DNA of 63,139 nucleotides, counting the filler, from Aduncisulcus paluster (lineage: Eukaryota), in the NCBI GenBank assembly GCA_024181965.1. It is 30 parts of 30 records of this genome, joined end to end, with 100 filler letters (N's around TTAATTAATTAA, not from the genome) between each part and the next. Parts side by side here need not be neighbours in the genome. Positions count along the whole stretch, not along the records: positions 41,694 to 59,006 come from BQXS01002465.1; 29 more parts are not named here. The stretch is one strand, 5' to 3'. The position numbers were made by a program, and so were the translations under genes. Shown piece by piece: positions 41,694-57,674 of this stretch. How positions within the stretch are numbered: position 1 is the stretch's first letter; each line of letters opens with the position of its first letter. The notes beneath the pieces are model-generated. The model did no database searches and was not told the DNA's origin. It saw nothing but the letters and a program-made list of their open reading frames with translations.

Positions 41694-42384
41694 GGGAAAC
41701 AAGGTAGTTAAGGTCACCGTAGGAAGGAGTGGTGAGCTTGAGAGTACGGAAACAGATGTCGTACAAGGCCTCGTTGTCGATACAGTAGGTCATCTCAGAG
41801 TTCTCAACCAACTGGTGGATGGAGAGGGTAGCGTTGTAAGGCTCAACAACGACATCAGACACCTTGGGGGAGGGAACGACAGAGTAGGAGCTCATGACAC
41901 GGTCGGGGTATTCCTCACGGATCTTGGCCATAAGAAGGGTACCCATACCGGAACCAGTACCTCCTCCGAGAGAGTGGCAGAGTTGGAAACCTTGGAGGCA
42001 ATCACAGCTCTCAGCTTCCTTACGGATAACATCGAGGACGGCATCAACGAGCTCAGCACCTTCAGTGTAGTGACCCTTGGCCCAGTTGTTACCAGCTCCA
42101 GTCTGACCGAAGACGAAGTTGTCAGGACGGAAAAGTTGACCGAAAGGACCAGCACGAACAGAGTCCATGGTTCCGGGCTCAAGATCAACAAGAACGGCAC
42201 GGGGAACGTAACGACCACCAGTGGCCTCGTTGTAGTAAACGTTGATACGCTCAAGTTGGAGATCAGAGTCACCATCGTAGGCACCAGCGGGGTCGACACC
42301 ATGTTCGTCGGAAATAACTTCCCAGAACTTGGCACCAATCTGGTTACCACATTGACCGGCTTGGATGTGAACGATTTCTCTCAT
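41694..42384 (-). CDS. TUBB: Beta-tubulin, 3'-partial (eukaryote)
   Basis: [36 protein letters not shown]-ending codon bias typical of highly expressed genes. Confidence 0.99.
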
Positions 42385-42466
42385 CTAAGAACAATAAAAA
42401 TATTAATAAGTCACATATTTGACCTAAAATGTGGCAAATATTGCTAAATATTGTAAGAAAACATAC
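42385..42466 (-). other. Predicted 82-nt spliceosomal intron in the beta-tubulin 5'UTR
   Basis: Minus strand GTATGT...TTTTTATTGTTCTTAG immediately followed by ATG. Confidence 0.65.
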
Positions 42467-42687
42467 TTTTTATCCTTGTTACGAATAGAATGTAAACAAA
42501 ACTAAAAAATTCAAAAAAAACAAAATCTTCTTGAAATTTTGATGCTTTTGACTTGTAAAAATCAATATTCCAGACTAAATAAAGCATGTCTAACAATTAA
42601 TAATTATAAAATATAATTAATTTTTAATTTTGCTTTGCTGTCAACTACGTAGGTTGTTTTTCTCATGTATACACGGAATTAGTATCC

Positions 42688-44535
42688 ATGAAAACAAGAG
42701 GAAATGGAACAATTCGGAAAATTAACCCAAATCCATCGGCTTTAAAAGAATTTCCATCTGTTTCTCCCCTAGCTTCCTCTCCATCCTCTTTAAAAAGAGA
42801 ATCTCTCAAAAAATCAATGAATATAACGGAATTATCAAAAAAATCTTCTCGTTACAAAAACATTTCTACAAAAAAACAACCATATTCCGTGACTCCTCTC
42901 AAAGTAATTCGATCTTCCCAATTTGTGGATCAACCTCGGGTCATCCAAAGTTTATCCCAGCATATTTCAACGCGAAAACAATACCAAATGACCCATGATA
43001 TTCCGCCATCCGTATCTGGGCTTTATTACGACCTTAAATATGGGAGTGGAAAAGAACTTTGGTGTCGGATCCGTGAGGTCAGTCCACAATTCCAAAAAGT
43101 GCAACAAAGACAATTAAAGGAGATGCTAATGCTCAAACAAAAACGATCACAGACTCAATCACAATCATGTTATCAGCTTCTCAAACTTTCAACTTTGGGA
43201 ATCCCAACCACCAAAGAAGAAACCAGTTCATTAGCTAAAACTCGTAAAAGGGATAAAAAACGATGTCCTGAAAGTCTTTTATTTCGTAAACGGCGAGAAA
43301 AGGGGCCATCTCACTCAATATTACAATATCCATTATCTACACCTTTTTTACCGGCAGAGCTTCAAATTACCAGTCGTCCGATCGATCTTTCGCCGTCTCG
43401 TCCTCTAACCACTGTTTCTAGCAGCACATCTTCCAGTTCTTCTCACGATTATCTTGTTCAATCGTCTTTCCCGAAGTCCATAGAAGAGCCTGGAAAGACC
43501 TCTTCTTCTCAAAAACTTTTGTCTAAACTTCCGTCGACACAATTTATTGATCTTTGGCCAGAGTCTCATTCAGAGGAGGATAAATATGCATCATCTTCAG
43601 ACAATTCATCTTTTTCAATTGATCTCGATCAAAAACATGTTGACTCTCCAAGCCATGATAAAGAAAAACGGTCAACCAACGTTTCAATACAACCAAAAAG
43701 TATTACTTTCTTGCAAAGTGAAGAAAAGAGAATTTTTATTGAGAGTCGCCAAGAAGAAGAAGAAGAAGAAGAGAAGAGAGAGAGACGGGGCCAATATGTT
43801 GAATATGACATCCATGGAAGAGACATTGATGATAAATTTGAACCTAAAGAAGGACAAGAACCCTTGGAGAGTCTTGACGAAAGTGAACCTCAAATTATCG
43901 ACCAAAGTGAAAGCGAAGAAAAATTGAGTGATTTAAATCATCCAAAATTTGAATCATCTGTTTCTTCTCAAGAGCTATTTATAGATATTAATGAATTTTC
44001 TAAACATATTTCAACTATTGACCATGAACAAGATCATATTTCAGACCAAGATGATTCTCTGTCGCATCATCGAATATCTATTATTATTGGACCTGATCCA
44101 AAAATAGATCACAAAGAATCACTTACTTCTGGAAAAAGCGCAACCATTTTTGAATCTCCTTCCGCTATAAAAATGCCTATTTGTATCGAGAAAACTCCAA
44201 TGGTCGACTCTTCGCCCAAATTTGAATCTCGAATGAAAGAATTTTCGATAAAATCAGATTCTTTAAGAAATGATTGTGATCCTATTCTTGCTTCAGATCC
44301 CATTGAGAGAATTGCCCATGATATGAGAGAAAAAACCGATTGTGTTTCGATAAATTCTCATCTAGATTATGTTAGTGGTTGGAAAACTGAATTAACAGCC
44401 ACAAAACGATCTGATGATCATCTAGATTCACTTTTGAGGGATCAAAACAAAAGATTGCGGGAAAATGGTCACAAAGCTGGAATTTTCTCACAATCGATTC
44501 GTACTTCTCGAAACCATTGTAAAAAATTATTGTAA
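42688..44535 (+). CDS. Hypothetical low-complexity Ser/Glu-rich protein
   Basis: 615-aa ATG-to-TAA ORF, no motif recognised. Confidence 0.7.
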   Translation: MKTRGNGTIRKINPNPSALKEFPSVSPLASSPSSLKRESLKKSMNITELSKKSSRYKNISTKKQPYSVTPLKVIRSSQFVDQPRVIQSLSQHISTRKQYQMTHDIPPSVSGLYYDLKYGSGKELWCRIREVSPQFQKVQQRQLKEMLMLKQKRSQTQSQSCYQLLKLSTLGIPTTKEETSSLAKTRKRDKKRCPESLLFRKRREKGPSHSILQYPLSTPFLPAELQITSRPIDLSPSRPLTTVSSSTSSSSSHDYLVQSSFPKSIEEPGKTSSSQKLLSKLPSTQFIDLWPESHSEEDKYASSSDNSSFSIDLDQKHVDSPSHDKEKRSTNVSIQPKSITFLQSEEKRIFIESRQEEEEEEEKRERRGQYVEYDIHGRDIDDKFEPKEGQEPLESLDESEPQIIDQSESEEKLSDLNHPKFESSVSSQELFIDINEFSKHISTIDHEQDHISDQDDSLSHHRISIIIGPDPKIDHKESLTSGKSATIFESPSAIKMPICIEKTPMVDSSPKFESRMKEFSIKSDSLRNDCDPILASDPIERIAHDMREKTDCVSINSHLDYVSGWKTELTATKRSDDHLDSLLRDQNKRLRENGHKAGIFSQSIRTSRNHCKKLL

Positions 44536-45173
44536 TAATATTTTGTGATTTAATATCTCTTTATCTTATCATCTTTTTTGAATACAACCTGATCCTGAGG
44601 ATTCATCCATCAATACACAGTATTCCATTAAATAGTCTGAGTCTCAATGAGTCATTAATCCAATTAAATGTAAATATAATGTATTAAGTTGTTTTACTCT
44701 GTGTGAATTGAACCACCGTGGTTGAACTAGACTTGTAAAATTGTTACAAGTTGGCTGTTTGTTGAAATGACACAAATATAACTTATCATTTAATATAACT
44801 TTCTTATGATGATCATATATTAGAATGGGCATCACTGTTCAACGGCATGGCAGAACGGCATGGCCAATAAGGCCGTGAAGATGTTTCGTCTTTGATTGAG
44901 TGACCTTCTTTTGAGGTGATTCTGACTAGTACAGACTTTGATCACCATCACCACCATGATTTTCTCAACTTTAATTCTTGCCATAATTTCCACTCAAGGG
45001 TACCAAGAGTTAACAGCAAAAGTAATAAATTTTAAAGAACTATGACCATCTGAACAATGTCATGGAAGGAGGATGGGTGTTTAAGTTAAGCAAGGTCGTA
45101 GATCCAGGAAACTGCTAATAACCAGAGTTTTGAACCCATCCACAACATATAAGACGAAAACAAGAAATTATTT

Positions 45174-46073
45174 ATGAAAATAGCAGTGTGTTATGTTTCA
45201 TTTACAGGAAATACGCAATATGTCGCTCATTCCATCAAATCTTTGCTTGAAGAACGTCACCACTCTGTTGACCTTATTTTAATGAATTGTGCCCTAAAAT
45301 CTACTGCTGAAGCTAAATTGTTTTCCTCTGGACAATACGATGGCATTTATTTCGGATCTCCTACTTGGGCATGGAGAACTCCTTCGATCTTTTCGAGAAT
45401 TCTCAATCATCCAGACATAATTCCAGATATTTCTGGTGTCCCATGCGTATTTTTTGCAACAAGTCAATCAAGTAGTTGCATTATAACTTATGAATGTGCC
45501 CCAATGCTCGAAAAGAAAGGAGCTATAGTTGTTGATTATTTCCTCACTAACGCCCCTTTTATGATGGGTAAACCATCAAAATTTGAGAAGAAAAAAGGCC
45601 ATTGGGCAATGGATAAGCGGGGTCCTATGGAAACTTCCATCATTTCTTCAATTACAAAAATTGTTTCTAAAACTCCGATTCCTGCAAAATTACGAAAGAA
45701 ACCAGGAGTTGTTGTTCGTTTAGGAGCTAAAATACCAGATAAAACCGTTTCCAAGATGTTTCATATGCCTCCTATTATTGAATCTGATTTGTGTATTGGA
45801 TGTGGGTTATGTGTGAAGAAATGTCCCGTAGATGTTCTTCAATTGGTTACTCGTGATCTTTCTGACGAGGAAGAGATTGTTTCAACCATTTCTTCTTCAA
45901 AATCACGAACAGATAAGATTGTGAAAGTTGTCAACAACGATGCTTGTATTGGATGTTTTTCTTGTCAGTTGGTGTGTCCAAAGCATGCCATTCATAACAA
46001 AAAGAGAACTCAAATCCATAAATTCACAAAAGAAATGTTGACTTCAGCAGGGAAGACAGGTTATTATAAATAA
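45174..46073 (+). CDS. Flavodoxin-like + 2x[4Fe-4S] ferredoxin fusion (EFR1-type ferrodoxin)
   Basis: SFTGNT FMN-phosphate loop, FGSPTW; CIGCGLCVKKCP and CIGCFSCQLVCP. Confidence 0.9.
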   Translation: MKIAVCYVSFTGNTQYVAHSIKSLLEERHHSVDLILMNCALKSTAEAKLFSSGQYDGIYFGSPTWAWRTPSIFSRILNHPDIIPDISGVPCVFFATSQSSSCIITYECAPMLEKKGAIVVDYFLTNAPFMMGKPSKFEKKKGHWAMDKRGPMETSIISSITKIVSKTPIPAKLRKKPGVVVRLGAKIPDKTVSKMFHMPPIIESDLCIGCGLCVKKCPVDVLQLVTRDLSDEEEIVSTISSSKSRTDKIVKVVNNDACIGCFSCQLVCPKHAIHNKKRTQIHKFTKEMLTSAGKTGYYK

Positions 46074-46253
46074 ATAAAATTTGTTCATAAATAGGTCATT
46101 CTTTCACTTATCTATTAAATCTAACGAACGTATTTTAGAATTAAAACATCTTTTTGGTTTATTTCCATTATTAAATAATGATTATTTAAACTTTTAAATA
46201 AAGCCAGAATTTGACATTGCTGAGAAAGTGTCTGTCAACCCTTACACAAATAT

Positions 46254-47395
46254 CTATTCCTCTCCTTCTTCTTCCTCTTCATCTTCTTCTTCTTCTTCAT
46301 ACTCTTCGACTTCATACTCCACCTCATATTCAACTTCTCCTTGGTTGGAATTCATCCATTCAACAAAAGGAAGAGCGTATTGGACACAAACTCCATGATG
46401 CTCCTCTCCAAGGAAGAATGGACCTTCTTTGGACTCGGACCACACCTTAAGACCATCGTATTCAAGAGCACCGCATTCATACAATTGTTGGAAAAATCCA
46501 CTGAGAGATCCTTTCGAGGCAAGCAGTTCTGAATGACGATGGACAAGAATTTCACAACATCTAAGCATCAGAGCTTGATCAAGAGGTTTGTCTGACAATA
46601 ACTCACCAAGGATTGGCAAATGAGTGGTCTTCCGGATGTCTTCTGAGGATGTGAAGGAAGCAGCGATTAGACATGGGATTCTCTCTCTCTTTTTAAGGAT
46701 TCCTTCCTCGCGGAACTCATGTAACATGGTACTAATTGTTGAGGCGTCTTTTGAATCGAGGAGAGCCTTCGAAATCTCCTCAACAGGATCAACGACCTTC
46801 ATACTAGACTTATCTTTTCCCTTCTTCCGCTTATGGGACTCTGTCTTGCCGCTGCTCCTTAACTGTTTCTCAATAATAGCAACAATACGATGGGCACCAG
46901 TAAAAATGTCATTATAACCACAAGCTTTGCAATGGCATTCTGTCTTGTCTCCGTCGGGTACAAAAACAGTTTCTGGAAGTCCACATTTTGGACACATAAC
47001 ATAATGATCAATAAAAACTTTCAGATGAGCATTCAAATCCTTCAAGGAATGAACACCAGCAATTCGAGCAAATCCAGTTGTTTTATCGTATTTAGTGTAA
47101 GAACCAACCTCAAATCCAAACCATTTTGTGACAACTGTTGTGAAAAAAGAAGCATAGAAGAAGAAAAATTAGCTATCCAAAGAAAAACAGGGAAAACAAA
47201 AATAATAAACAAAAAACTGGGTAATATGAACATACTTTCAGTTGGACGGTTTAACGCTGTTGCCAAATCTCTCATATTTTCAATAATAGTTCTAATACCA
47301 TTTCCTCTTCCTTCCTTTCTAAGAGCCATTTCTGGCATCCTATAACGGTATCCTGGCGTGGAAGAAAAGTCAATATTAATTAATTTTGGTCCCAT
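46254..47395 (-). CDS. EIF5: Translation initiation factor eIF5; exons 47395-47236 and 47134-46254
   Basis: YRYRMP..KEGRGNGIRT; splicing the GTATGT..CAG intron (47235-47135) restores LNRPTEIVTKWFGFEVG; CPKC..CKACG zinc finger; W2-type acidic C-terminus. Confidence 0.93.
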
Positions 47396-47610
47396 ATCGC
47401 GAACTACTTCGAGACTTCTCGACAAAAACAGTGATTTGATTTTCTGATTCCATATTTGCTCAAATGTGATGAACTTGAAATAAAAGAAATACGATTTAGT
47501 ATTTATCTCAACCATTCATCCGATTTTGATACATTCTATATAATTGTCCTTTCTATTTTTGGAAAAGTACCCATCAATCAGCTTTGTAGCGATAATTCAC
47601 AAACGATAAT

Positions 47611-50442
47611 ATGGCTACGCATATATTTGGAGGAAGTATAACCAAATTTAATGGCTTCTTGCCCAAAAATGAATTTGTTTCTCTTTCTCGAGATGGTTTA
47701 GTGATCGCTGATGTCAGAGCTACTAAAATCCGAAAAGTCATATCCATACCAAAGAAATTTTTATCCAATATTATTGATGGAGCTCTTATTTCAGAATCTA
47801 CCCATATTGTATTAATATCTCATTCTGAGCTCCGTATATTTCATATTCCATCGGGAAAAGAGGTGTATAAAATTAGAACTAAGAAATATTCTGTTGAAAA
47901 AATTGTTAATAATGCATATTCATCAAGTTTTATTGTTGCTACCTCTTCAACCAGACACCGAAAGATTGTTTTGTTTCGATTTGATTATTCATCCTCTGAC
48001 AAAACATTAAATATTTCTAATCCGATTCCTTTTGTATCGTACATTGTGTCTTCTCGTTCAAATGCTATATTATCCCTTGCGTCTTGCCCCGATAATTCAG
48101 TTCTTCTAACTCATGGAAATATTGTTTCCACCATTCCTTTGTCAGCTTCTAGCCTTCAAACTGGTGTTATCATGGCTGATATGGATCCAACTCTATTTTA
48201 TTCCTCTTCTTCCATTACTTGCTGCTGTTCCTCCCCGTCCTTGCATTCACAGATAAGTGGAAATGGATGTAAAAATGCTATTGGGCTAACAAGTGGTGAA
48301 ATTCTTCTCTTTTCTTCCCATTCGTCTCTTTCTCGCGTTGGGAGTTCACGTCTACTTCCAATGACAGCTGTGGAGGATATTTCTGAAGGATGGGACAGTT
48401 CAGGGTGTAAAAAACACGATATTAAACAATATGACACTGTCCATGTCCACACTAACGTTTATTCTCATTATAAGGCCCGTTTGCATTGGCATAGTGCAGC
48501 CGTTAATACTTTATGTTTCCATGATGGTGGTGACACTCTCTTAAGTGGGGGAAGTGAAAACTCTCTTGTTTGTTGGGATATGATGAATGTTCAACCATCT
48601 TTTGTCCGATTACTTGTTCATCCGATTGCCATTCACTTGCCTCCTGCTTCATCGACTCTCCCTTGTATTGCTGTTGTTCAGAGAAATAACGCCGTTGTTT
48701 TCATTAGATTACACTCTCGAACATACCACTCCGATACTCTCATTGCTGTTTTGCAAGGAATTCACTCAAAAACACCCCAAGAATCTATTTTTGGATCACA
48801 GTGTGACATTGATTCTATTTCTGGCGATCTTTTGATACCAAGTATTCATGGGTGTTGTCAGATGGTTCCGATTTTAAACCGAAAGAAGCCATCCAAAACT
48901 ATTAAGAAAATGATTTTGGACAAGGCTGACTCTGAAAGGTTTGATGGAGAACGAAAACTTCGGAAAAAACAAGGTGCATGTTTAAAATGTAATGGTCCGG
49001 TCTCATTTTTCTCAGCACTTGATAAAACATTAATTGGAATGCATGGTTCAATTGTTCTTGAACATGTTCCTCCAGTCCAAACCAAATCAGTTAACCCTCA
49101 ACTCCAAGCCAAAGCTGGGTTATCTGCAACGCTTGATTATCCAAGAATAATATCATTATCTGTTAATTCCGATATCTTGGCGGCAATCGTCTCGACTTCT
49201 TTAGGCGTATATCTTCATTTCTTCTCACTGACATATCCAACCTGTTCTATTTTTGGATCTACTCATTTGGGTGATTCTATTTTTGGATGTGTGAAAGTGA
49301 GAGCTGATGGTAAGCGTGTTGTGTGTGCTTATAGTGGGGAAATTAGAGAGTATGACACGAGTGGAGATGAAGTCAAAGTCTTAGGAATTAAAGAAAAAAC
49401 ATCTTCAGGAAATGTTATTTCCATGGAATACTCTGGAGATACGTTGTATTTCTGTTGTTTGAGTGATGACAACTCACTCACATTCAATGTTTCTCATCCT
49501 TCTGGAGCTATTTTTAGTCAAATTATTGACGATGGAGATCTTTATGGAGATGAAGATTCTGATTTCAAGGAGGTTTCTTCTTTGTCACGTAAATTACCTT
49601 CTCATCTTCTTCCTGCTTCGGTAAGTCAAGAAATACGGACCACTCACAAGATATCAAAACCAAAAAGAAAGAAAGAAATATCGTCATTTTTTTCTAAGGT
49701 GAAAATTAGCGTGTCAACTGAAAATGATCTCGTTTCTGATATTTTAGATAGGTCAAGCATTGTGGCTGTCCTGGTTGATGATAGAATATGTTCTATATTT
49801 AGGATCATTGAGAAAGTGGTTGTTCCAAGTGGAAAAGAAAAGAAAGAGGAAGAAGAGATTGATGTTGTTAACTATGACGGTCTTGAAACAGATTCAGACG
49901 TTTATTTGTCTTTGGAAACTGTTTTGTCTCATGACGATATCAAACAATGTATTGGAGTTTCTCAAAATAGTGCTCCAAAAATAGATATTCTTGATGTTAT
50001 CTCGTGTAACCACCATATTTATATCGCTATTCGTGGACCTTCTTCTATTTCGCTCCTTTCTTGTCTCTTTAAACGTTTGTCAAAGAAGAGATTCAATGTT
50101 ATTCAAGATCTTGGTAGTGTTTCTCAAAATATATCTATTTTTGGAGCTCAACAAGGCATTGTTTGTGTTTGTGAAGGTGACGAAACGAATGTCATTTCCA
50201 TTTTCCACGATCGAGCTAAAGATATTGTGAAGGAAGAGGAGGAAGAAGAAGATGTCAAGATCCATCCAGATGCTCACATCATGAAAAATGCTGGATTATT
50301 GGATGCGGACAAGTCTAAACAAATTGGACAAGCAAAACACAGTGTTATTGTTAAAGAATTAAGTCTTCCAACTAAAATACATTCCTTGGCCGAAATTTAT
50401 AACGATATTACAAAACAAATCATTTCTTGGGAATCATTTTAG
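47611..50442 (+). CDS. WDR75: WD40 protein, WDR75/Utp17-like SSU processome component
   Basis: LHWHSAAVNTLCF..GDTLLSGGSENSLVCW resembles the WDR75/Nan1 signature; 943 aa. Confidence 0.7.
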   Translation: MATHIFGGSITKFNGFLPKNEFVSLSRDGLVIADVRATKIRKVISIPKKFLSNIIDGALISESTHIVLISHSELRIFHIPSGKEVYKIRTKKYSVEKIVNNAYSSSFIVATSSTRHRKIVLFRFDYSSSDKTLNISNPIPFVSYIVSSRSNAILSLASCPDNSVLLTHGNIVSTIPLSASSLQTGVIMADMDPTLFYSSSSITCCCSSPSLHSQISGNGCKNAIGLTSGEILLFSSHSSLSRVGSSRLLPMTAVEDISEGWDSSGCKKHDIKQYDTVHVHTNVYSHYKARLHWHSAAVNTLCFHDGGDTLLSGGSENSLVCWDMMNVQPSFVRLLVHPIAIHLPPASSTLPCIAVVQRNNAVVFIRLHSRTYHSDTLIAVLQGIHSKTPQESIFGSQCDIDSISGDLLIPSIHGCCQMVPILNRKKPSKTIKKMILDKADSERFDGERKLRKKQGACLKCNGPVSFFSALDKTLIGMHGSIVLEHVPPVQTKSVNPQLQAKAGLSATLDYPRIISLSVNSDILAAIVSTSLGVYLHFFSLTYPTCSIFGSTHLGDSIFGCVKVRADGKRVVCAYSGEIREYDTSGDEVKVLGIKEKTSSGNVISMEYSGDTLYFCCLSDDNSLTFNVSHPSGAIFSQIIDDGDLYGDEDSDFKEVSSLSRKLPSHLLPASVSQEIRTTHKISKPKRKKEISSFFSKVKISVSTENDLVSDILDRSSIVAVLVDDRICSIFRIIEKVVVPSGKEKKEEEEIDVVNYDGLETDSDVYLSLETVLSHDDIKQCIGVSQNSAPKIDILDVISCNHHIYIAIRGPSSISLLSCLFKRLSKKRFNVIQDLGSVSQNISIFGAQQGIVCVCEGDETNVISIFHDRAKDIVKEEEEEEDVKIHPDAHIMKNAGLLDADKSKQIGQAKHSVIVKELSLPTKIHSLAEIYNDITKQIISWESF

Positions 50443-50899
50443 TTTTATTCTCTTTGCATATTCAAATAAAACCTCTAAACTATGGACTTTTTCATCTAGT
50501 AATAGCAATTTCTCATTTAATTGCTTTTCTAGAAGATCAAGAATGAAAAACGATTTGATAGTAAAATAAACATTCTACACACATAAAAAAAACAGACATA
50601 TGATGTACAACATACCATTTTCCATAATTTTCTCCTTTATAACTAGTATTTCATGTAAACTCTGAGATATTATTGATTTTGTCGTGGTCGCATTAAAGGA
50701 AGCTTTTTCTGGCGGTTTTCTGCCTCTTTTGCTCAAAGGGTTGGCTTTAAACATTTATATTGTATTAATAAAATTTCTATTGTTTGTCAAATTAGAATTG
50801 GGCAAGTATGATGTAGGAACATTATGTATGATATCAATTGTATAAAAAGTATAAAATGGGGCAAAAATTTTTTTATTATTATTTCATATTATGCAGGAC

Positions 50900-50973
50900 G
50901 AGTATTCTTCATCTCAGAGAAGAGAGGCATCGAATCATGTTTGTCCCTTCCCTTTCACAGATAAAGTATGCTC
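50900..50973 (-). promoter_or_regulatory. Candidate eukaryotic SECIS element (GUGA type, form 2)
   Basis: GAGCAUACUUUAUCU-GUGAA-AGGGAAGGGAC-AAA-CAUGAUUCGAUG-CCUCUCUUCUCU-GA-GAUGAAGAAUACUC: helix I, UGA/GA core, 10-bp helix II, apical AAA, mini-stem. Confidence 0.7.
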
Positions 50974-51004
50974 AATCCAGATAAACCAGAGAGAAAATAT
51001 GTCA

Positions 51005-51041
51005 TGCAGAGAGAATGGACTTTATCCTAGAACTCTCTGCA
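51005..51041 (-). promoter_or_regulatory. Stem-loop 7 nt downstream of the UGA (SRE-like)
   Basis: UGCAGAGAG-uucua-GGAU-aaa-GUCC-auu-CUCUCUGCA. Confidence 0.5.
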
Positions 51042-51042
51042 A

Positions 51043-51540
51043 TTATCCTCACTTAGAACAGCCATCAATATCTCCTTGTTGAACAACTGTTTTTTTGGAA
51101 CGTGTGATGCCACCAAATTCAAGTAAGTCGAGCTGAGTTTCATCGATGTCACCAACGTTTCCTGATATAAATAAAGTTAAATTATGAACTTTAAAGAATT
51201 TTGAAGGGTCTAATTCTATTTTTGTTGGTCCTTCAGCAACCCACGCATCTTCAGACAATGTTATCTCCTGAACAGGATCTTCCTCCTCAACATCATCAAA
51301 GTCGAGAGGTGTAGAATTGATAAAAAGCTTAATGGTTGAAGGAAAAGCTTCTTTTATAGGGGAATGTATTTGAAAAGATAATAAACGAACTGTACTTTGA
51401 AATACAATCCGAAATAGAAGAGTTTCATCACATTCACTTTTCATGATGACATCTCTTGATATTAGTCTTTGAAGAGTTGTTGAACCATTTTGAACACCTG
51501 ATTGTTCAATTTCAATTTCTTCAATTAAATTCACTTCCAT
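51043..51540 (-). CDS. PITH-domain protein with C-terminal C-S-K-U-G (candidate selenoprotein); start at 51540, alternatively 51573
   Basis: PITH motifs SECDETLLFRIVF, PSTIKLFIN..LDFDD, KFFKVHNLTLFISGN, ETQL..LEFGG; 3' end TGT TCT AAG TGA GGA TAA. Confidence 0.8.
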
Positions 51541-51872
51541 CTGATTCAAAAATGAATCGGACAAACCTAGCATACATTTCCAGAAAAATCTCTAAAAATA
51601 GATTTTTATTTATATTATTTCTAAATATATTTTTATATTAATCTATTATATTTACTAATGATAATTTTATTAAAATAAATTTCTTTATAATCTATTTTTA
51701 GGTAATTTAGAATGGATGCACATGACTTGAAAATTCAAAAATCATATGCTTGAAAAAAAGCTCCTTATAGATATTTATGAATAAAATAACAAAATATTAG
51801 TGATTTGCTTCTGTTCTGAACGAGATGCTCTCCAGCCTCTATCCGTCAAGTTTTTCTTGTATTACCACTTTA

Positions 51873-53007
51873 ATGAAGGATATCAGAATTGGAGATACCA
51901 TTAGAATACCTGCTAATGTAGAAAAGGTATGTGTTTTTGTATTTTGCTCATTGTTTCTTCTAGTTTTGTTTCACTCTCACCACCGTTTTATTTCTCTAGG
52001 GATTCCCTGAATTATCCATAACCCCTGAAAGAGTTATCGGTTCTGGTTCATTTGGTGTTGTTTTTTTGGGAAGAACGGTGCCAGAAGGTCAAACAGTTGC
52101 TATAAAAAAGGTTCTTCAGGATAAGCGCTATAAAAACAGAGAATTGCAAATATCTTCTTCGTTATCTCATCCAAATGTTGTGAGATTTCGGCAATGCTTC
52201 TATTCTCCTGGTTCAAAGCCTGAAGAAGTATACCTAAATCTCATTATGGATTATTACCCTGAAACTGTTTATTCAATATGTAAGCAATATAATAGACTTA
52301 GACAATCAATGCCAATGATCCTTGTTCGCCTTTTTTCTTATCAACTTTTCCGTTCCCTTGCCTATATTCACAGCAAGCATCATACATGTCATAGAGATAT
52401 CAAACCCCAGAATTTACTTGTTGATCCGGGCACTGGCCACCTTGTTCTATGTGATTTTGGGAGTGCCAAGCAGTTAAGACCTGGGGAACCCAATGTTTCA
52501 TACATTTGCTCAAGGTATTATCGCGCCCCTGAATTAATCTTCGGTGCAACATTATATACTTCTGCTATTGACGTGTGGAGTGCCGGATGTGTTGTTGCAG
52601 AGTTATTACTTGGTCAACCGATCTTCCCTGGTGAGACAAGTGTCGATCAGCTTGTTGAGATCATTAGAACTATTGGAAGCCCAAACAAAGATGATATCCG
52701 TGCAATGAATGAACAATACACAGAATTCAAGTTTCCTTCAATTCGTGCTCATCCATGGGAAAAAGTTTTCCGTGGCAGAACACCAAGTTCAGCTATTGAG
52801 CTTATTTCTCAATTATTAGTGTATAACCCCAAGAAAAGATTGACAGCTATCGAGGCTTTGGCTCATCCTTTCTTTGATCCCCTCCGTGAACCCGGGGTAA
52901 GATTGCCAAATGGGAAAACTTTGCCAAATCTATTCGATTTTTCTCCCTCTGAACTTTCTTTGATGTCAATGGAACTTAGAGAAAAAATTCTTCCTAAAAA
53001 GAAATAA
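51873..53007 (+). CDS. GSK3: GSK3/shaggy-like kinase; exons 51873-51926 and 52000-53007
   Basis: GTATGT..TAG intron 51927-51999 restores [55 protein letters not shown]. Confidence 0.96.
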
Positions 53008-53128
53008 TAATTTCATTTTTTTTTTTCTGTTTTTATCTTTGCAACTTGGTCTAATAAATCTATAATCTGAGTTTTCGTTCATTTCAGAACAAGTTTGTTG
53101 GAAGTCTCTTTTTGGCCCCGTTAAATGA

Positions 53129-53825
53129 ATGTATGATATCGAAATTGTTATATTATTGAACAACATTGATGAACCGATTGAATCTGCTGTTATTTTAATG
53201 GACAGCTTCTTTGCAGAATCGTATTCATATTCGATTTGTATTTTTGACATTCGAAAATCAAGGCAAAGGGATTATTATAGTTTTGATCCGCTTCTTGATA
53301 ATCTAAGAACGAATTATAGGCATATAAAACGAATTTTTAGGGGAGATTTCTCTTATTGTTTTCAGCAATTGAATGTCACTCCAGCTTTTTCTTCTTTCAT
53401 TTCATTCTTTCCTGCCGATTTCGGATTCAGTGTATGTTTATTTTTGTTTATTTTTTCTTATTAATTATATATATATTCCTTACAAACAATTCAAGCTTGG
53501 TGATTTGAAAAGAGCTGTCATTTTTGCCTTGAGTTCATGTCGTTGCGTCTTATCTGAAGATTCAAGATGTAGAAAAGGACTTTGGAGATTTACAATGGGT
53601 TATCTACCCTCTTTTATTATTTGCTGTCCAAGTGAAATAATTGCTTCAATTTCTCATTCAACTTTTTCAAACTCAAATAGGAGTTTGGTGGAACTTGGGA
53701 TTTTAATTTATTTCTTCTGTCTTAATAGTGATATTGAATTAAGAATTTTGTCATATAATTGTAAATTGTCAAAGAAATATCGATTTAATAGGTTTATTTC
53801 TGGTTTTAAAACGATATTTCTGTAA
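53129..53825 (+). CDS. Hypothetical protein; exons 53129-53431 and 53496-53825
   Basis: Two ORFs joined in frame by a phase-0 64-nt GTATGT..AAG intron. Confidence 0.6.
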
Positions 53826-54309
53826 GTTTTTGTTTGTTTGTTTGTTTTTTTATGTTTTGTTTTTTTGCCTTCTTTACAATTGAAATCAAATGATTATTTA
53901 TTGATAAATCTATAGTTTATCGATAATAGAATGAATGTGAGTTGCAATCCCGGCATCAAGTGTCTTCATTTTGTGATGAGAGGAGAGAGAAGACCGTACG
54001 AATCTATAAACTTGGCCAATCTCCTCAGAAATGCTNNNNNNNNNNNNNNNNNNNNGATTTAATAGGTTTATTTCTGGTTTTAAAACGATATTTCTGTAAG
54101 TTTTTGTTTGTTTGTTTGTTTTTTTATGTTTTGTTTTTTTGCCTTCTTTACAATTGAAATCAAATGATTATTTATTGATAAATCTATAGTTTATCGATAA
54201 TAGAATGAATGTGAGTTGCAATCCCGGCATCAAGTGTCTTCATTTTGTGATGAGAGGAGAGAGAAGACCGTACGAATCTATAAACTTGGCCAATCTCCTC
54301 AGAAATGCT
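53782..54309. repeat. 254-nt direct duplication (53782-54035 = 54056-54309) across a 20-N gap; assembly artefact
   Basis: Apparently identical copies either side of the scaffold gap. Confidence 0.9.
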
Positions 54310-55753: not shown

Positions 55754-57674
55754 ATGACGAAAAAAAATCTGAGAGCAACATCCTCCAATTTCTTGAAGGT
55801 CCGAAGGTATCCACGTTTTTTTTGTTTAAATTACAACTTACAGTTTGCATTTATTTATGAGTGCCGACTTTTATCATTCTTTTACCCCACAAGAACAATT
55901 TAGTTCATGCTTTTCCTCTATTGCCACTAGTAGCACTGTACCTCCCGTTTATCATGTCCAAGAGAGGAATCCTTCCCCTTACACGTTTTATTTACCCAAT
56001 TTCACTTCTCAATTGTTGATGGATTCCTCTTTGTCAAAATGGGTTTCTCGCCACTGTTCCAAGTTCCCTATCCATCGGTCTTACACATCCTTTCCCCATA
56101 TCCCTGTTCTTATGGATCTATCTACGCATGCTATTGCCATAAGATGTCCTGGATTAGGTTCTTCTGTATCTCCTCGGGAAATTCTAAGGTTACTACATGG
56201 TCGTGCACCCTCCTTTTCATTGAGTTGTGAAGAGACGAGATGTTTCGCTGAACCAAGCCATCCTTCAGACGGTCAGTACTCCCAAAGTTCTTTGCCGCCT
56301 TGGTTTGCTCCCGAGCATCCTGTTCCATACACAATCTATGAGCAAACTTCGAATTCTCTCCCGTTCACAAGCCCTTCTCAACTCTTATCGTGTCGTTGCG
56401 GAGGATGTGGCCTTCCCCCGTTCTGTGTCACTTCTGTTATCCATCATTTTGTGTCTGATGACGTGTTGATTATTGTTTTTCACGCCAAACACTTTGCTGA
56501 GAAAGCATGTGCATGGCTACGATCCCATTTTGCCCAGAGATGCATCCATTTCCCATTCATGTCCCGCTCTACACTCTCTTCCACAGTGCCTGTTTCTCCA
56601 AGTCCTGCATCAGTCCAAATTGGTTATGTTTTGCCCATTTTTTACGATGATATCTTCAAAAACCCTTATGCCGTCAAGAGAAATCCTTCTTCCGACAAGA
56701 TTATTGAATATGTGGCCGGTTACTCTTCATTTGGCGGTATAGATGGCTGTGGGAAGCTTCCCCTCCCAAGCCCTGAGTGTTTTCCCTTAAAATCTCCCCA
56801 ATATGATGCCTTAGAAGACGATTCTTCAATTCCTATGTCTGGTAAATCATGGATTTCAACCCCTTCTCTCCCATCTAGCACCGGTTCATCTCCTTTCTCT
56901 TCGGCCAGAACCGAGATATCGGCACATTCATCGGCACATTCATCGGCTAGATCCCAACTATCCATCGACTCAAGCTCTTCCCCTATCCTCTCCCCTCCAT
57001 CCACAGGCTTTGTTTTTCCGAGATCTTCGATGCTTATTCCCCAAGATTCTTCTCATTTTCCCGCACCTTTCCTCTCTCTTTCTCACCGTGTTGTCCGATT
57101 TCCTGGACCTATATCCTTGCTAAGTCGTGCCTTTCTTGCTCTTTCGAGGTCTGGTCGTGATGGGTTCTCTCTGTGTAACATGTCCCGTCTTGTGATGTTC
57201 GATGTGCGACAATCAATCGTTCTCTCTGATCTAGAGGGTGTGCTTAGCGTCTATAACATATTAGGTCTCCGTGAGAGTAGATTAAAATACTCAAAAACTC
57301 TGAAGGAAAAAGTTCGCTGTGTATTTGTCGAATTTAAAGATCGTAGGTCTCTATTGAAATGTATCCTTGACTTGGATAATCCGGTGTCCGAAGCATATAA
57401 ATTGAAGGGATATATAGGGGGCATTGACTTTGGAGCTCCTGGTGGTAAATTAGCTCATTCGTTCCTTTACATTCCATCCAGACCACCTTCTGTTGGACCC
57501 TTTTATAATGAATGGCTTGTCCCATCTTTAAAACCATATTTAAGTTGTTATGATAATGCTAGCATAGGAATTATGGATAAAAGGAGAGAATTTGTATCTG
57601 ATGTGGCTTCTGATTCCTTGAAACAGTTTTACGTTCCTTTATTTTTACAATGGTTCGGTGGATCTTTGGCTTGA
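55754..57674 (+). CDS. Hypothetical protein with Ser-rich region and RRM-like C-terminal segment; possible exon 55754-55806 plus 55844-57674
   Basis: 37-nt GTATCC..CAG intron joins ATG 55754 in frame; RCVFVEF resembles RNP1. Confidence 0.6.

Follow-up and report, generated by a model that had tools for sequence, protein, structure and literature searches.

A probable selenocysteine codon followed by a SECIS-like hairpin in a PITH-domain gene of the fornicate Aduncisulcus paluster

The window analysed here is a 63,139-nucleotide (nt) stretch of DNA from Aduncisulcus paluster, a microaerophilic, free-living fornicate grown in a seawater-based culture medium (PMC9933649), and is composed of 30 parts of 30 records of the assembly GCA_024181965.1 joined end to end. 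The minus strand of its contiguous stretch 41694-54035 carries a gene for a PITH-domain protein in which an in-frame TGA is followed by one glycine codon and a second stop. Comparison with related genes indicates that this is probably a genuine selenoprotein gene, with the TGA specifying selenocysteine (Sec, U). In the proposed mechanism, the UGA at codon 175 would be decoded as Sec, and the product, of 176 residues, would consist of a PITH domain alone, with a flexible tail ending Cys-Ser-Lys-Sec-Gly. The recoding would be driven by hairpin 2, a candidate selenocysteine insertion sequence (SECIS) element with a GUGA core, located 93 nt downstream in a 192-nt 3' untranslated region (3'UTR). 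Hairpin 1, which starts 8 nt after the UGA, would probably assist the recoding. The gene contains the following features.

51046..51573, minus strand: PITH coding sequence with the TGA read through; translation with TGA as U gives 176 residues ending ...GDIDGCSK-U-G
51049..51051, minus strand: in-frame TGA, the proposed codon of Sec175
51046..51048, minus strand: GGA, the codon of Gly176, next after the TGA
51043..51045, minus strand: TAA, the true stop if the TGA encodes Sec
51005..51041, minus strand: hairpin 1, a 9-base-pair (bp) stem that encloses a 4-bp stem; its start is 2 nt past the TAA and 8 nt past the TGA
50896..50978, minus strand: hairpin 2, a SECIS-like kink-turn stem-loop; span taken from an 89-nt fold, core 93 nt after the TGA
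50857..51042, minus strand: 3'UTR, 186 nt after the TAA or 192 nt after the TGA, containing both hairpins; its extent is based on one contig of the sequencing run X2 described below
50872..50877, minus strand: polyadenylation (poly(A)) signal AATAAA; its 3' end is 15 nt upstream of the junction with the poly(A) tract (50857)

The PITH open reading frame (ORF; 51573..51049, minus strand) has 174 codons up to the TGA, and its 3' end reads GAT GGC TGT TCT AAG TGA GGA TAA, which corresponds to ...D-G-C-S-K-TGA-GGA-TAA. The Pfam family PITH (PF06201) matches residues 12-162 of the 174 with an E value of 1.3e-31; it is the sole Pfam match in the protein, and no thioredoxin domain was found there by Pfam. 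The database model of the protein (P0001) has 163 residues, is 100% identical, starts at Met12 (51540), and ends at the TGA. An in-frame ATG at 51573 on the minus strand, upstream of this public start, would add 11 residues. The structure of the protein was predicted by AlphaFold2 from a sequence alignment (A1) with a mean predicted local distance difference test (pLDDT) score of 90.7. The last approximately 17 residues have a pLDDT of about 51, which indicates a flexible C-terminal tail. The best fold matches identified by Foldseek are TXNL1 bound to the human proteasome, with template modelling scores of 0.77-0.89, and Arabidopsis At3g04780, and the closest solved structures by sequence, according to phmmer, are 1wwy (E value 1.5e-14) and 1xoy. 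In the predicted structure, a disordered tail follows a PITH fold of the TXNL1 type. The tail has the sequence TVVQQGDIDGCSK, followed by U-G under the Sec reading, and Cys172 is positioned three residues before Sec175, forming a CxxU motif.

The strongest indication that the TGA encodes Sec comes from relatives of the gene. A word-indexed search with the PITH protein returned nothing beyond the protein itself; a full HMMER scan identified 808 relatives, the nearest of which, apart from the protein itself, is only 43% identical to it. Among the best 150 of the 808, 31 have a C-terminal glycine, about 20 of them in the context ...[ND]Mx[DE][LF]KKxG, and other PITH homologues terminate in ...KKC. 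Thirteen of the KKxG proteins were aligned (A2) and condensed into the peptide pattern [HA]xT[ND]Mx[DEN]LKK, which was used to scan metagenome contigs. The pattern is blind to anything after the last lysine, and so to the stop codon. The scan provided 41 metagenomic PITH loci (L001-L041), confirmed by tblastn. The first in-frame stop is TGA in all 41 of them. A TAA or TAG is located one or two codons past the TGA in 39 loci, and in 38 of these the first codon after the TGA specifies cysteine or glycine. Across all 41 loci, that codon reads GGN in 29; 11 others have TGC and one has TCG, and the resulting tails are of five kinds.

KK-C-U-G-x-stop: 20 loci
KK-C-U-G, with the frame open past the glycine: 2 loci
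KK-x-G-U-C(-x)-stop: 11 loci
KK-C-G-U-S-stop: 1 locus
KK-x-G-U-G(-S)-stop: 7 loci

The 41 loci form 22 clusters at 85% identity and many are near copies; therefore, they represent 22 roughly independent observations. The Sec position in these relatives is one to three residues from the C-terminus. The TGA-GGA-TAA of the window has the ending of the family, in which UGA is followed by one or two codons, the first of them for glycine or cysteine, and by a second stop. Exactly TGA-Gly-stop, as in the window, is present in L012, L028, L029, L035, L036, and L037. Homologues that simply end after the lysine had been named in the preliminary description of the locus as evidence that would speak against Sec; instead, a TGA with a glycine or cysteine codon after it, and then a stop, is conserved in the relatives. 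The exchange of Sec for cysteine, which the same description had expected at this position, was not observed: none of 260 homologues ends in CxxC plus zero to two residues. The only homologue ending in CG is P0032, and its gene reads on through TGA-TCG-TAA.

Two of the loci, L040 (669-1430) and L041 (1348-2109), have no early stop after KK-C-TGA-GGT, and their SECIS match with the covariance model R1 described below is about 694 nt downstream. What follows the glycine codon resembles a splice donor, and a further exon may therefore encode the rest of the tail.

The metagenomic loci also contain SECIS elements. In most of them, RUGA-CGR...AA...YGA occurs downstream of the TGA, usually at a distance of 75-280 nt. 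Twenty-one distinct elements of this kind were aligned (A3). Pairing in helix II amounts to 84% in the alignment, and nine of its 11 pairs have changes on both sides. None of 500 shuffles reached this degree of pairing, and controls in which the sequences were slid reached only 31-49%. RNAalifold recovered only five pairs from A3, in which four rows are misaligned. A covariance model (R1) with a GC-rich bias was built from the 21 elements and detects a plus-strand element after the TGA in 32 of the 41 loci, 21 of which are its training rows and most of the others near copies. Its new matches are L040 and L041, at 26 bits. Of the nine loci without an R1 match, four have less than 200 nt of flanking sequence, and L036 and L037 pass a SECIS pattern written for this analysis. 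The Rfam model SECIS_1 (RF00031), which is independent of R1, scores 22.8 bits on L030 and 23.8 bits on L006. It has no match in a 201-nt search of L016, although the element there is equally clear, and no SECIS match at E <= 1 when 20 loci were searched together, a search space that is too large. The core is GUGA, as in the window, in eight loci. The loci with a TGA, a second stop, and SECIS elements imply that the KKxG and KKC proteins in databases are truncated predictions of selenoproteins. Proteins cut at the conserved TGA include P0003, P0006, P0022, P0023, P0048, P0064, and P0347; in the loci that match the cut proteins, the frame resumes with U-C, U-G, or U-G-x and then reaches TAA or TAG.

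The relatives share a further feature with the window, a stem-loop that in many of them starts only a few bases from the second stop. Of 32 distinct segments made up of the 62 nt from the TGA onward, 17, belonging to about 10 of the 22 clusters, fold with z scores of -2 or lower, and the next 62 nt, used as a control, do so in four of 31 segments. These z scores are from mononucleotide shuffles, and the corresponding value for the window's own 62 nt is -3.65. The stem-loop is present in L001, L002, L005, L010, L011, L013-L023, L025, L029, L034, L035, and L039. It is a feature derived here from the relatives and not a published criterion, and it may act as an element of the Sec-redefinition type where the UGA is located beside the true stop. 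The order of UGA, glycine codon, stop, stem-loop, and SECIS-like hairpin is common to the window and the relatives.

In the window, hairpin 1 has a folding energy of -17.3 kcal/mol and a z score of -4.18, and none of 200 shuffles is as stable. Its form is similar to that of Sec-redefinition-type stem-loops. For hairpin 2, a 76-nt piece was folded and has an energy of -20.8 kcal/mol and a z score of -2.55, with two of 200 shuffles as stable. The base of hairpin 2 is a long lower helix followed by an internal loop in which GUGA (50958-50955) is positioned opposite UGAG (GA at 50915-50914). Helix II (10 bp) extends above the loop and leads to the AAA (50942-50940), which is 12 nt from the UGA, and then to a mini-stem of 3 bp and a loop of 6 nt. 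This overall architecture is shared with the elements of L016, L024, L029, and L030, and the hairpin is unique within the window. The TGA context and the two stem-loops that follow it confirm the preliminary description.

The core of eukaryotic SECIS elements is UGAN/KGAW (PMC3753652). Hairpin 2 has the SECIS layout of a UGA facing a GA and an unpaired AA 12 nt after the core, where about 11-13 nt are expected. The base after the GA is G and not W, and the same G is found in 11 of the 21 elements of the relatives. A flexible SECIS pattern was written for this analysis, with parameters fixed after the candidate had been seen: [AG]TGA, an arm of 10-14 nt, AA, an apex of 5-25 nt, a 3' arm of the same length +/-1 with no more than one mismatch, GA, and a lower helix of 5 bp or longer. 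Hairpin 2 is its sole match on both strands of the 63-kb window. By chance, the pattern matches 0.83 times per 38 kb of dinucleotide-shuffled sequence, or about 20 times per Mb, which falls within the range of false positives of SECISearch3 with its default pattern and with Infernal at 10 bits (PMC3753652). Among shuffles of the PITH 3'UTR itself, 56 of 20000 match, or about 0.003 per UTR.

The locus is covered by two sequencing runs of one sample, which are not fully independent: X1, a DNA run from which the assembly may have been built, and X2, which was taken as RNA from a tool's guess and from the content of its contigs. A 469-nt contig of X2 spans 50857-51301 and carries an additional 24 loose, non-templated T before 50857. 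The genome at this junction has AAAA on the plus strand and no matching run of T. We read the 24 T as a poly(A) tail on the strand of the PITH gene, from a single contig, and contigs are weak evidence for the ends of RNA. The preliminary description had set position 50973 as a point beyond which the transcript should extend, and the X2 contig reaches 50857.

It is unlikely, but deserves serious consideration, that the TGA is a plain stop, that the protein ends ...GCSK, and that the GGA-TAA and the hairpins are due to chance or are relics retained after Sec decoding was lost. Several observations speak for such an ending or weigh against the decoding of the UGA as Sec. TGA is an ordinary stop elsewhere in this genome, as in the ORF ending at 57674 and in a small gene ending at 50434 that is described below; genes neighbouring the PITH gene stop at TAA, TAG, and TGA, which indicates that the standard code applies. 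Searches of 1301, 201, and 83 nt of the window gave no match to the Rfam model SECIS_1 at E <= 10. The score of hairpin 2 with R1 does not exceed 1.4 bits, and the hairpin is not among the top matches of R1 in the 21-kb eukaryotic part. A strict SECIS pattern without bulges misses hairpin 2, which requires a bulged A beside its core and has G instead of A before the UGA; its minimum-energy fold leaves no unpaired bases past the 3' GA. The family motif T-N-M-x-[DE]-L-K-K is absent from the tail TVVQQGDIDGCSK. In the MAFFT alignment, T162-V-V is beneath T-N-M and the rest of the tail is unaligned, so that its alignment to the tails of the relatives is ambiguous. In a tree from a quick search only, most forks are open and the window protein is on a long branch of 1.7. 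No literature linking Aduncisulcus to selenium was found.

The force of some of these points is limited. Since Rfam SECIS_1 gives no score even to the clear element of L016, it lacks sensitivity for this family, and little weight attaches to the absence of a match in the window. The silence of R1 provides no support for hairpin 2, but the model is dominated by GC-rich sequences and gives its own AT-rich training rows only 18-26 bits. Because the quick tree is mostly open and the query branch is long, no placement is claimed; the neighbours of the window protein in the tree, P0006 and P0016, both have Sec-type endings, with non-significant support. The ending DIDGCSK-U-G had at one stage been equated with the family ending NMNELKKxG. 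This correspondence was withdrawn, since MAFFT aligns the tail otherwise and the NMNELKKxG endings are truncations.

Two further arguments for an ordinary stop come from the literature. Sec use is patchy in metamonads, with Sec machinery reported as absent from Giardia, Trichomonas, and S. vortens (PMC2874811, PMC6759080). Furthermore, Cys172 alone could be the ligand provided by the tail, as exposed cysteines are reported to engage the active site of the proteasomal Rpn11 (2026 preprint PMC13648738). On the side of Sec decoding, Sec machinery is reported from other metamonads: from Spironucleus salmonicida and S. barkhanus (PMC2874811, PMC6397501), from Monocercomonoides exilis (PMC6759080), and from Paratrimastix and Trimastix (PMC10703272). 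In the two Spironucleus species, a search with ERPIN reportedly identified no canonical SECIS (PMC2874811, PMC6397501). Glycine followed by a stop directly after the TGA is expected by chance in far fewer than one in 100 genes, according to a rough estimate, yet it matches the ending of the relatives. A relic is unlikely to have retained a second stop, a post-stop stem-loop, and a hairpin of SECIS geometry within a 192-nt 3'UTR. The loss of selenoproteins is reported to be tied to leaving seawater and to parasitism (PMC7539508), whereas A. paluster is free-living and its medium is based on seawater (PMC9933649). The evidence from the relatives, with TGA in 41 of 41 loci, a second stop in 39, and SECIS elements downstream, sustains the preliminary reading of the TGA as Sec.

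Hairpin 1 could alternatively stimulate programmed read-through, in which a near-cognate tRNA for tryptophan, cysteine, or arginine would read the UGA; this would add two residues to the protein and involve no selenium. A stable stem-loop does begin 8 nt after the UGA, and this spacing resembles that of known read-through stimulators. Such read-through is nevertheless very improbable, because relatives of the same layout carry SECIS elements and an extension by two residues is of no evident use if the residue inserted is an ordinary one. In addition, PMC7539508 counts PITH among the selenoprotein families. It is scarcely credible that the TGA arose from a mistake in sequencing or assembly, or that it is a sense codon that varies between strains: the draft genome is fragmentary (29.4 Mb in 25,863 contigs, 39.1% GC, N50 of 4.6 kb; PMC9933649), but the letters of the TGA are identical in the X1 DNA contig and the RNA-like X2 contig, with no variant listed, in runs that share one sample and are not fully independent.

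The reading of the UGA as Sec places the window gene in a family that has been recorded before. PITH is among 42 algal selenoprotein families, outside the three that were novel in that survey, and the algal protein is described as a proteasome-interacting thioredoxin domain without a thioredoxin fold (Jiang et al. 2020, PMC7539508). The window protein is similar in having a PITH domain that lacks the thioredoxin fold and a UGA that would be read as Sec. No other description of PITH/DUF1000 selenoproteins was found in the literature. The preliminary statement that no Sec-containing PITH protein had been described is therefore not supported, and with it the claim of a new family fails. The new parts are the member from a metamonad, the CxxU-G tail, and the post-stop stem-loop. 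In contrast to the algal hosts, A. paluster is a heterotrophic anaerobic metamonad. The tails of the metagenomic relatives are ...KK-C-U-G-x, ...KK-x-G-U-C, and ...KK-x-G-U-G, whereas that of the window protein is ...TVVQQGDIDGCSK-U-G. The cysteine adjoins Sec in the relatives; in the window, it is at position -3 (CxxU) and is not preceded by TNMx[DE]LKK. The putative SECIS element of the window is AT-rich, with a GUGA core, and is unscored by the models.

The C-terminal redox centre of thioredoxin reductase is Gly-Cys-Sec-Gly. In this enzyme, a penultimate Sec is followed by glycine and a stop, with a 3'UTR that carries a SECIS element, and the same layout is proposed for the window gene. The Cys-Sec-Gly triplet also occurs in the commonest tail of the relatives, KK-C-U-G. 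The fold of thioredoxin reductase is, however, unrelated to PITH, and its cysteine adjoins Sec, whereas that of the window protein is three residues before it. The thioredoxin reductase-like TrxR-L of Acanthamoeba ends UGA-Gly-UAA (PMC8038987).

The structures of TXNL1 suggest what a Sec-containing tail may do. The PITH domain of TXNL1 is reported to sit on Rpn2, Rpn10, and Rpn11, with M275 and F278 of its tail in the Rpn11 groove and the terminal H289 bound to the catalytic zinc (PMC12700817), which bears out the statement in the preliminary description that the TXNL1 tail contacts the Rpn11 zinc site. TXNL1 (PDB 9e8g and related entries) has a PITH fold and a flexible C-terminal tail past the last strand, as predicted for the window protein. 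It differs in having an N-terminal thioredoxin domain with a CxxC motif, whereas the window protein consists of PITH alone, and its tail ends in His289 and not in Cys-x-x-Sec-Gly. Arabidopsis At3g04780 (PDB 1xoy) is, like the window protein, a stand-alone PITH domain of about 176 residues. Plant PITH tails end ...LKKIEDH, with the terminal histidine six residues past the conserved leucine, and there is no UGA in their genes.

By analogy with TXNL1, the PITH domain of A. paluster would dock on the lid of the 19S proteasome at Rpn2/Rpn10/Rpn11, with its tail in the Rpn11 groove. Sec175 would then either bind the catalytic zinc of Rpn11 or pair with Cys172 in a redox-active selenenylsulfide. Relatives with Sec-type endings have the methionine and leucine of TNMxDLKK at the positions that correspond to M275 and F278 of TXNL1, and Sec is located five residues past the leucine. 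From these positions, and from Sec at Leu+5 versus the plant histidine at Leu+6, we infer that Sec may replace histidine as the zinc ligand. Alternatively, Sec may be joined to the cysteine beside it in a selenenylsulfide, as in the Gly-Cys-Sec-Gly centre of thioredoxin reductase. It is possible, if doubtful, that in PITH selenoproteins, including that of the window, the penultimate Sec is no classical redox residue but a selenolate ligand of the Rpn11 zinc in place of histidine, an exchange of Sec for His and not for Cys, that its insertion in Aduncisulcus depends on a minimal kink-turn SECIS with a GUGA core to which current models are blind, and that Sec use reaches the Carpediemonas-like fornicates. 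No literature joining Kipferlia with selenocysteine was found.

The PITH gene is neighboured by a gene for a GSK3-like kinase, whose product is 100% identical to a protein assigned to A. paluster, and, on its 3' side, by an additional gene that was not listed before.

50434-50754, minus strand: small spliced gene with ATG at 50754 and TGA at 50436-50434, encoding about 77 residues

Its 87-nt intron (50615-50529) has GT..AG borders (CT..AC on the plus strand), and an X2 contig joins 50528 to 50616. The 3' end of the small gene abuts the TAG (50440-50442) of a convergent WDR75-like gene. The distance of about 600 nt between the PITH and WDR75-like genes had been regarded in the preliminary description as unusually long. 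The number is right, but the gap is not one long UTR, and the argument from its length fails because the small gene lies within it. No tRNA genes were found in the window. An ORF at 45153-46073 on the plus strand encodes a flavodoxin-like N-terminal part, below the Pfam cut-off, and two 4Fe-4S ferredoxin motifs. Proteins combining flavodoxin-like and 4Fe-4S ferredoxin parts are typical of anaerobic protists.

The part of the window at 1-41693 consists of short pieces chained by runs of 44 N and by the linkers TTAATTAA and TTAATTAATTAA, with a GC content of up to 0.61. Of the 31-mers of the window, 21% are common to a bacterial genome of 2.4 Mb in one contig (G001), and the PITH locus has no match in that genome. 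The shared 31-mers are probably those of bacteria in the culture that remained in the draft assembly. The predicted gene set of A. paluster has a BUSCO completeness of only 40%.

If the UGA is decoded, A. paluster would provide the first selenoprotein of a Carpediemonas-like fornicate among the literature found, which would bear on the retention and loss of selenium use among metamonads. The public 163-residue model, together with many database PITH proteins ending ...KKxG or ...KKC, would then be cut at the Sec codon. Hairpin 2 would serve as a test case for SECIS predictors on AT-rich protists. The 2025 structures of TXNL1 on the proteasome would offer the Sec-containing tail a target, the groove and the zinc of Rpn11.

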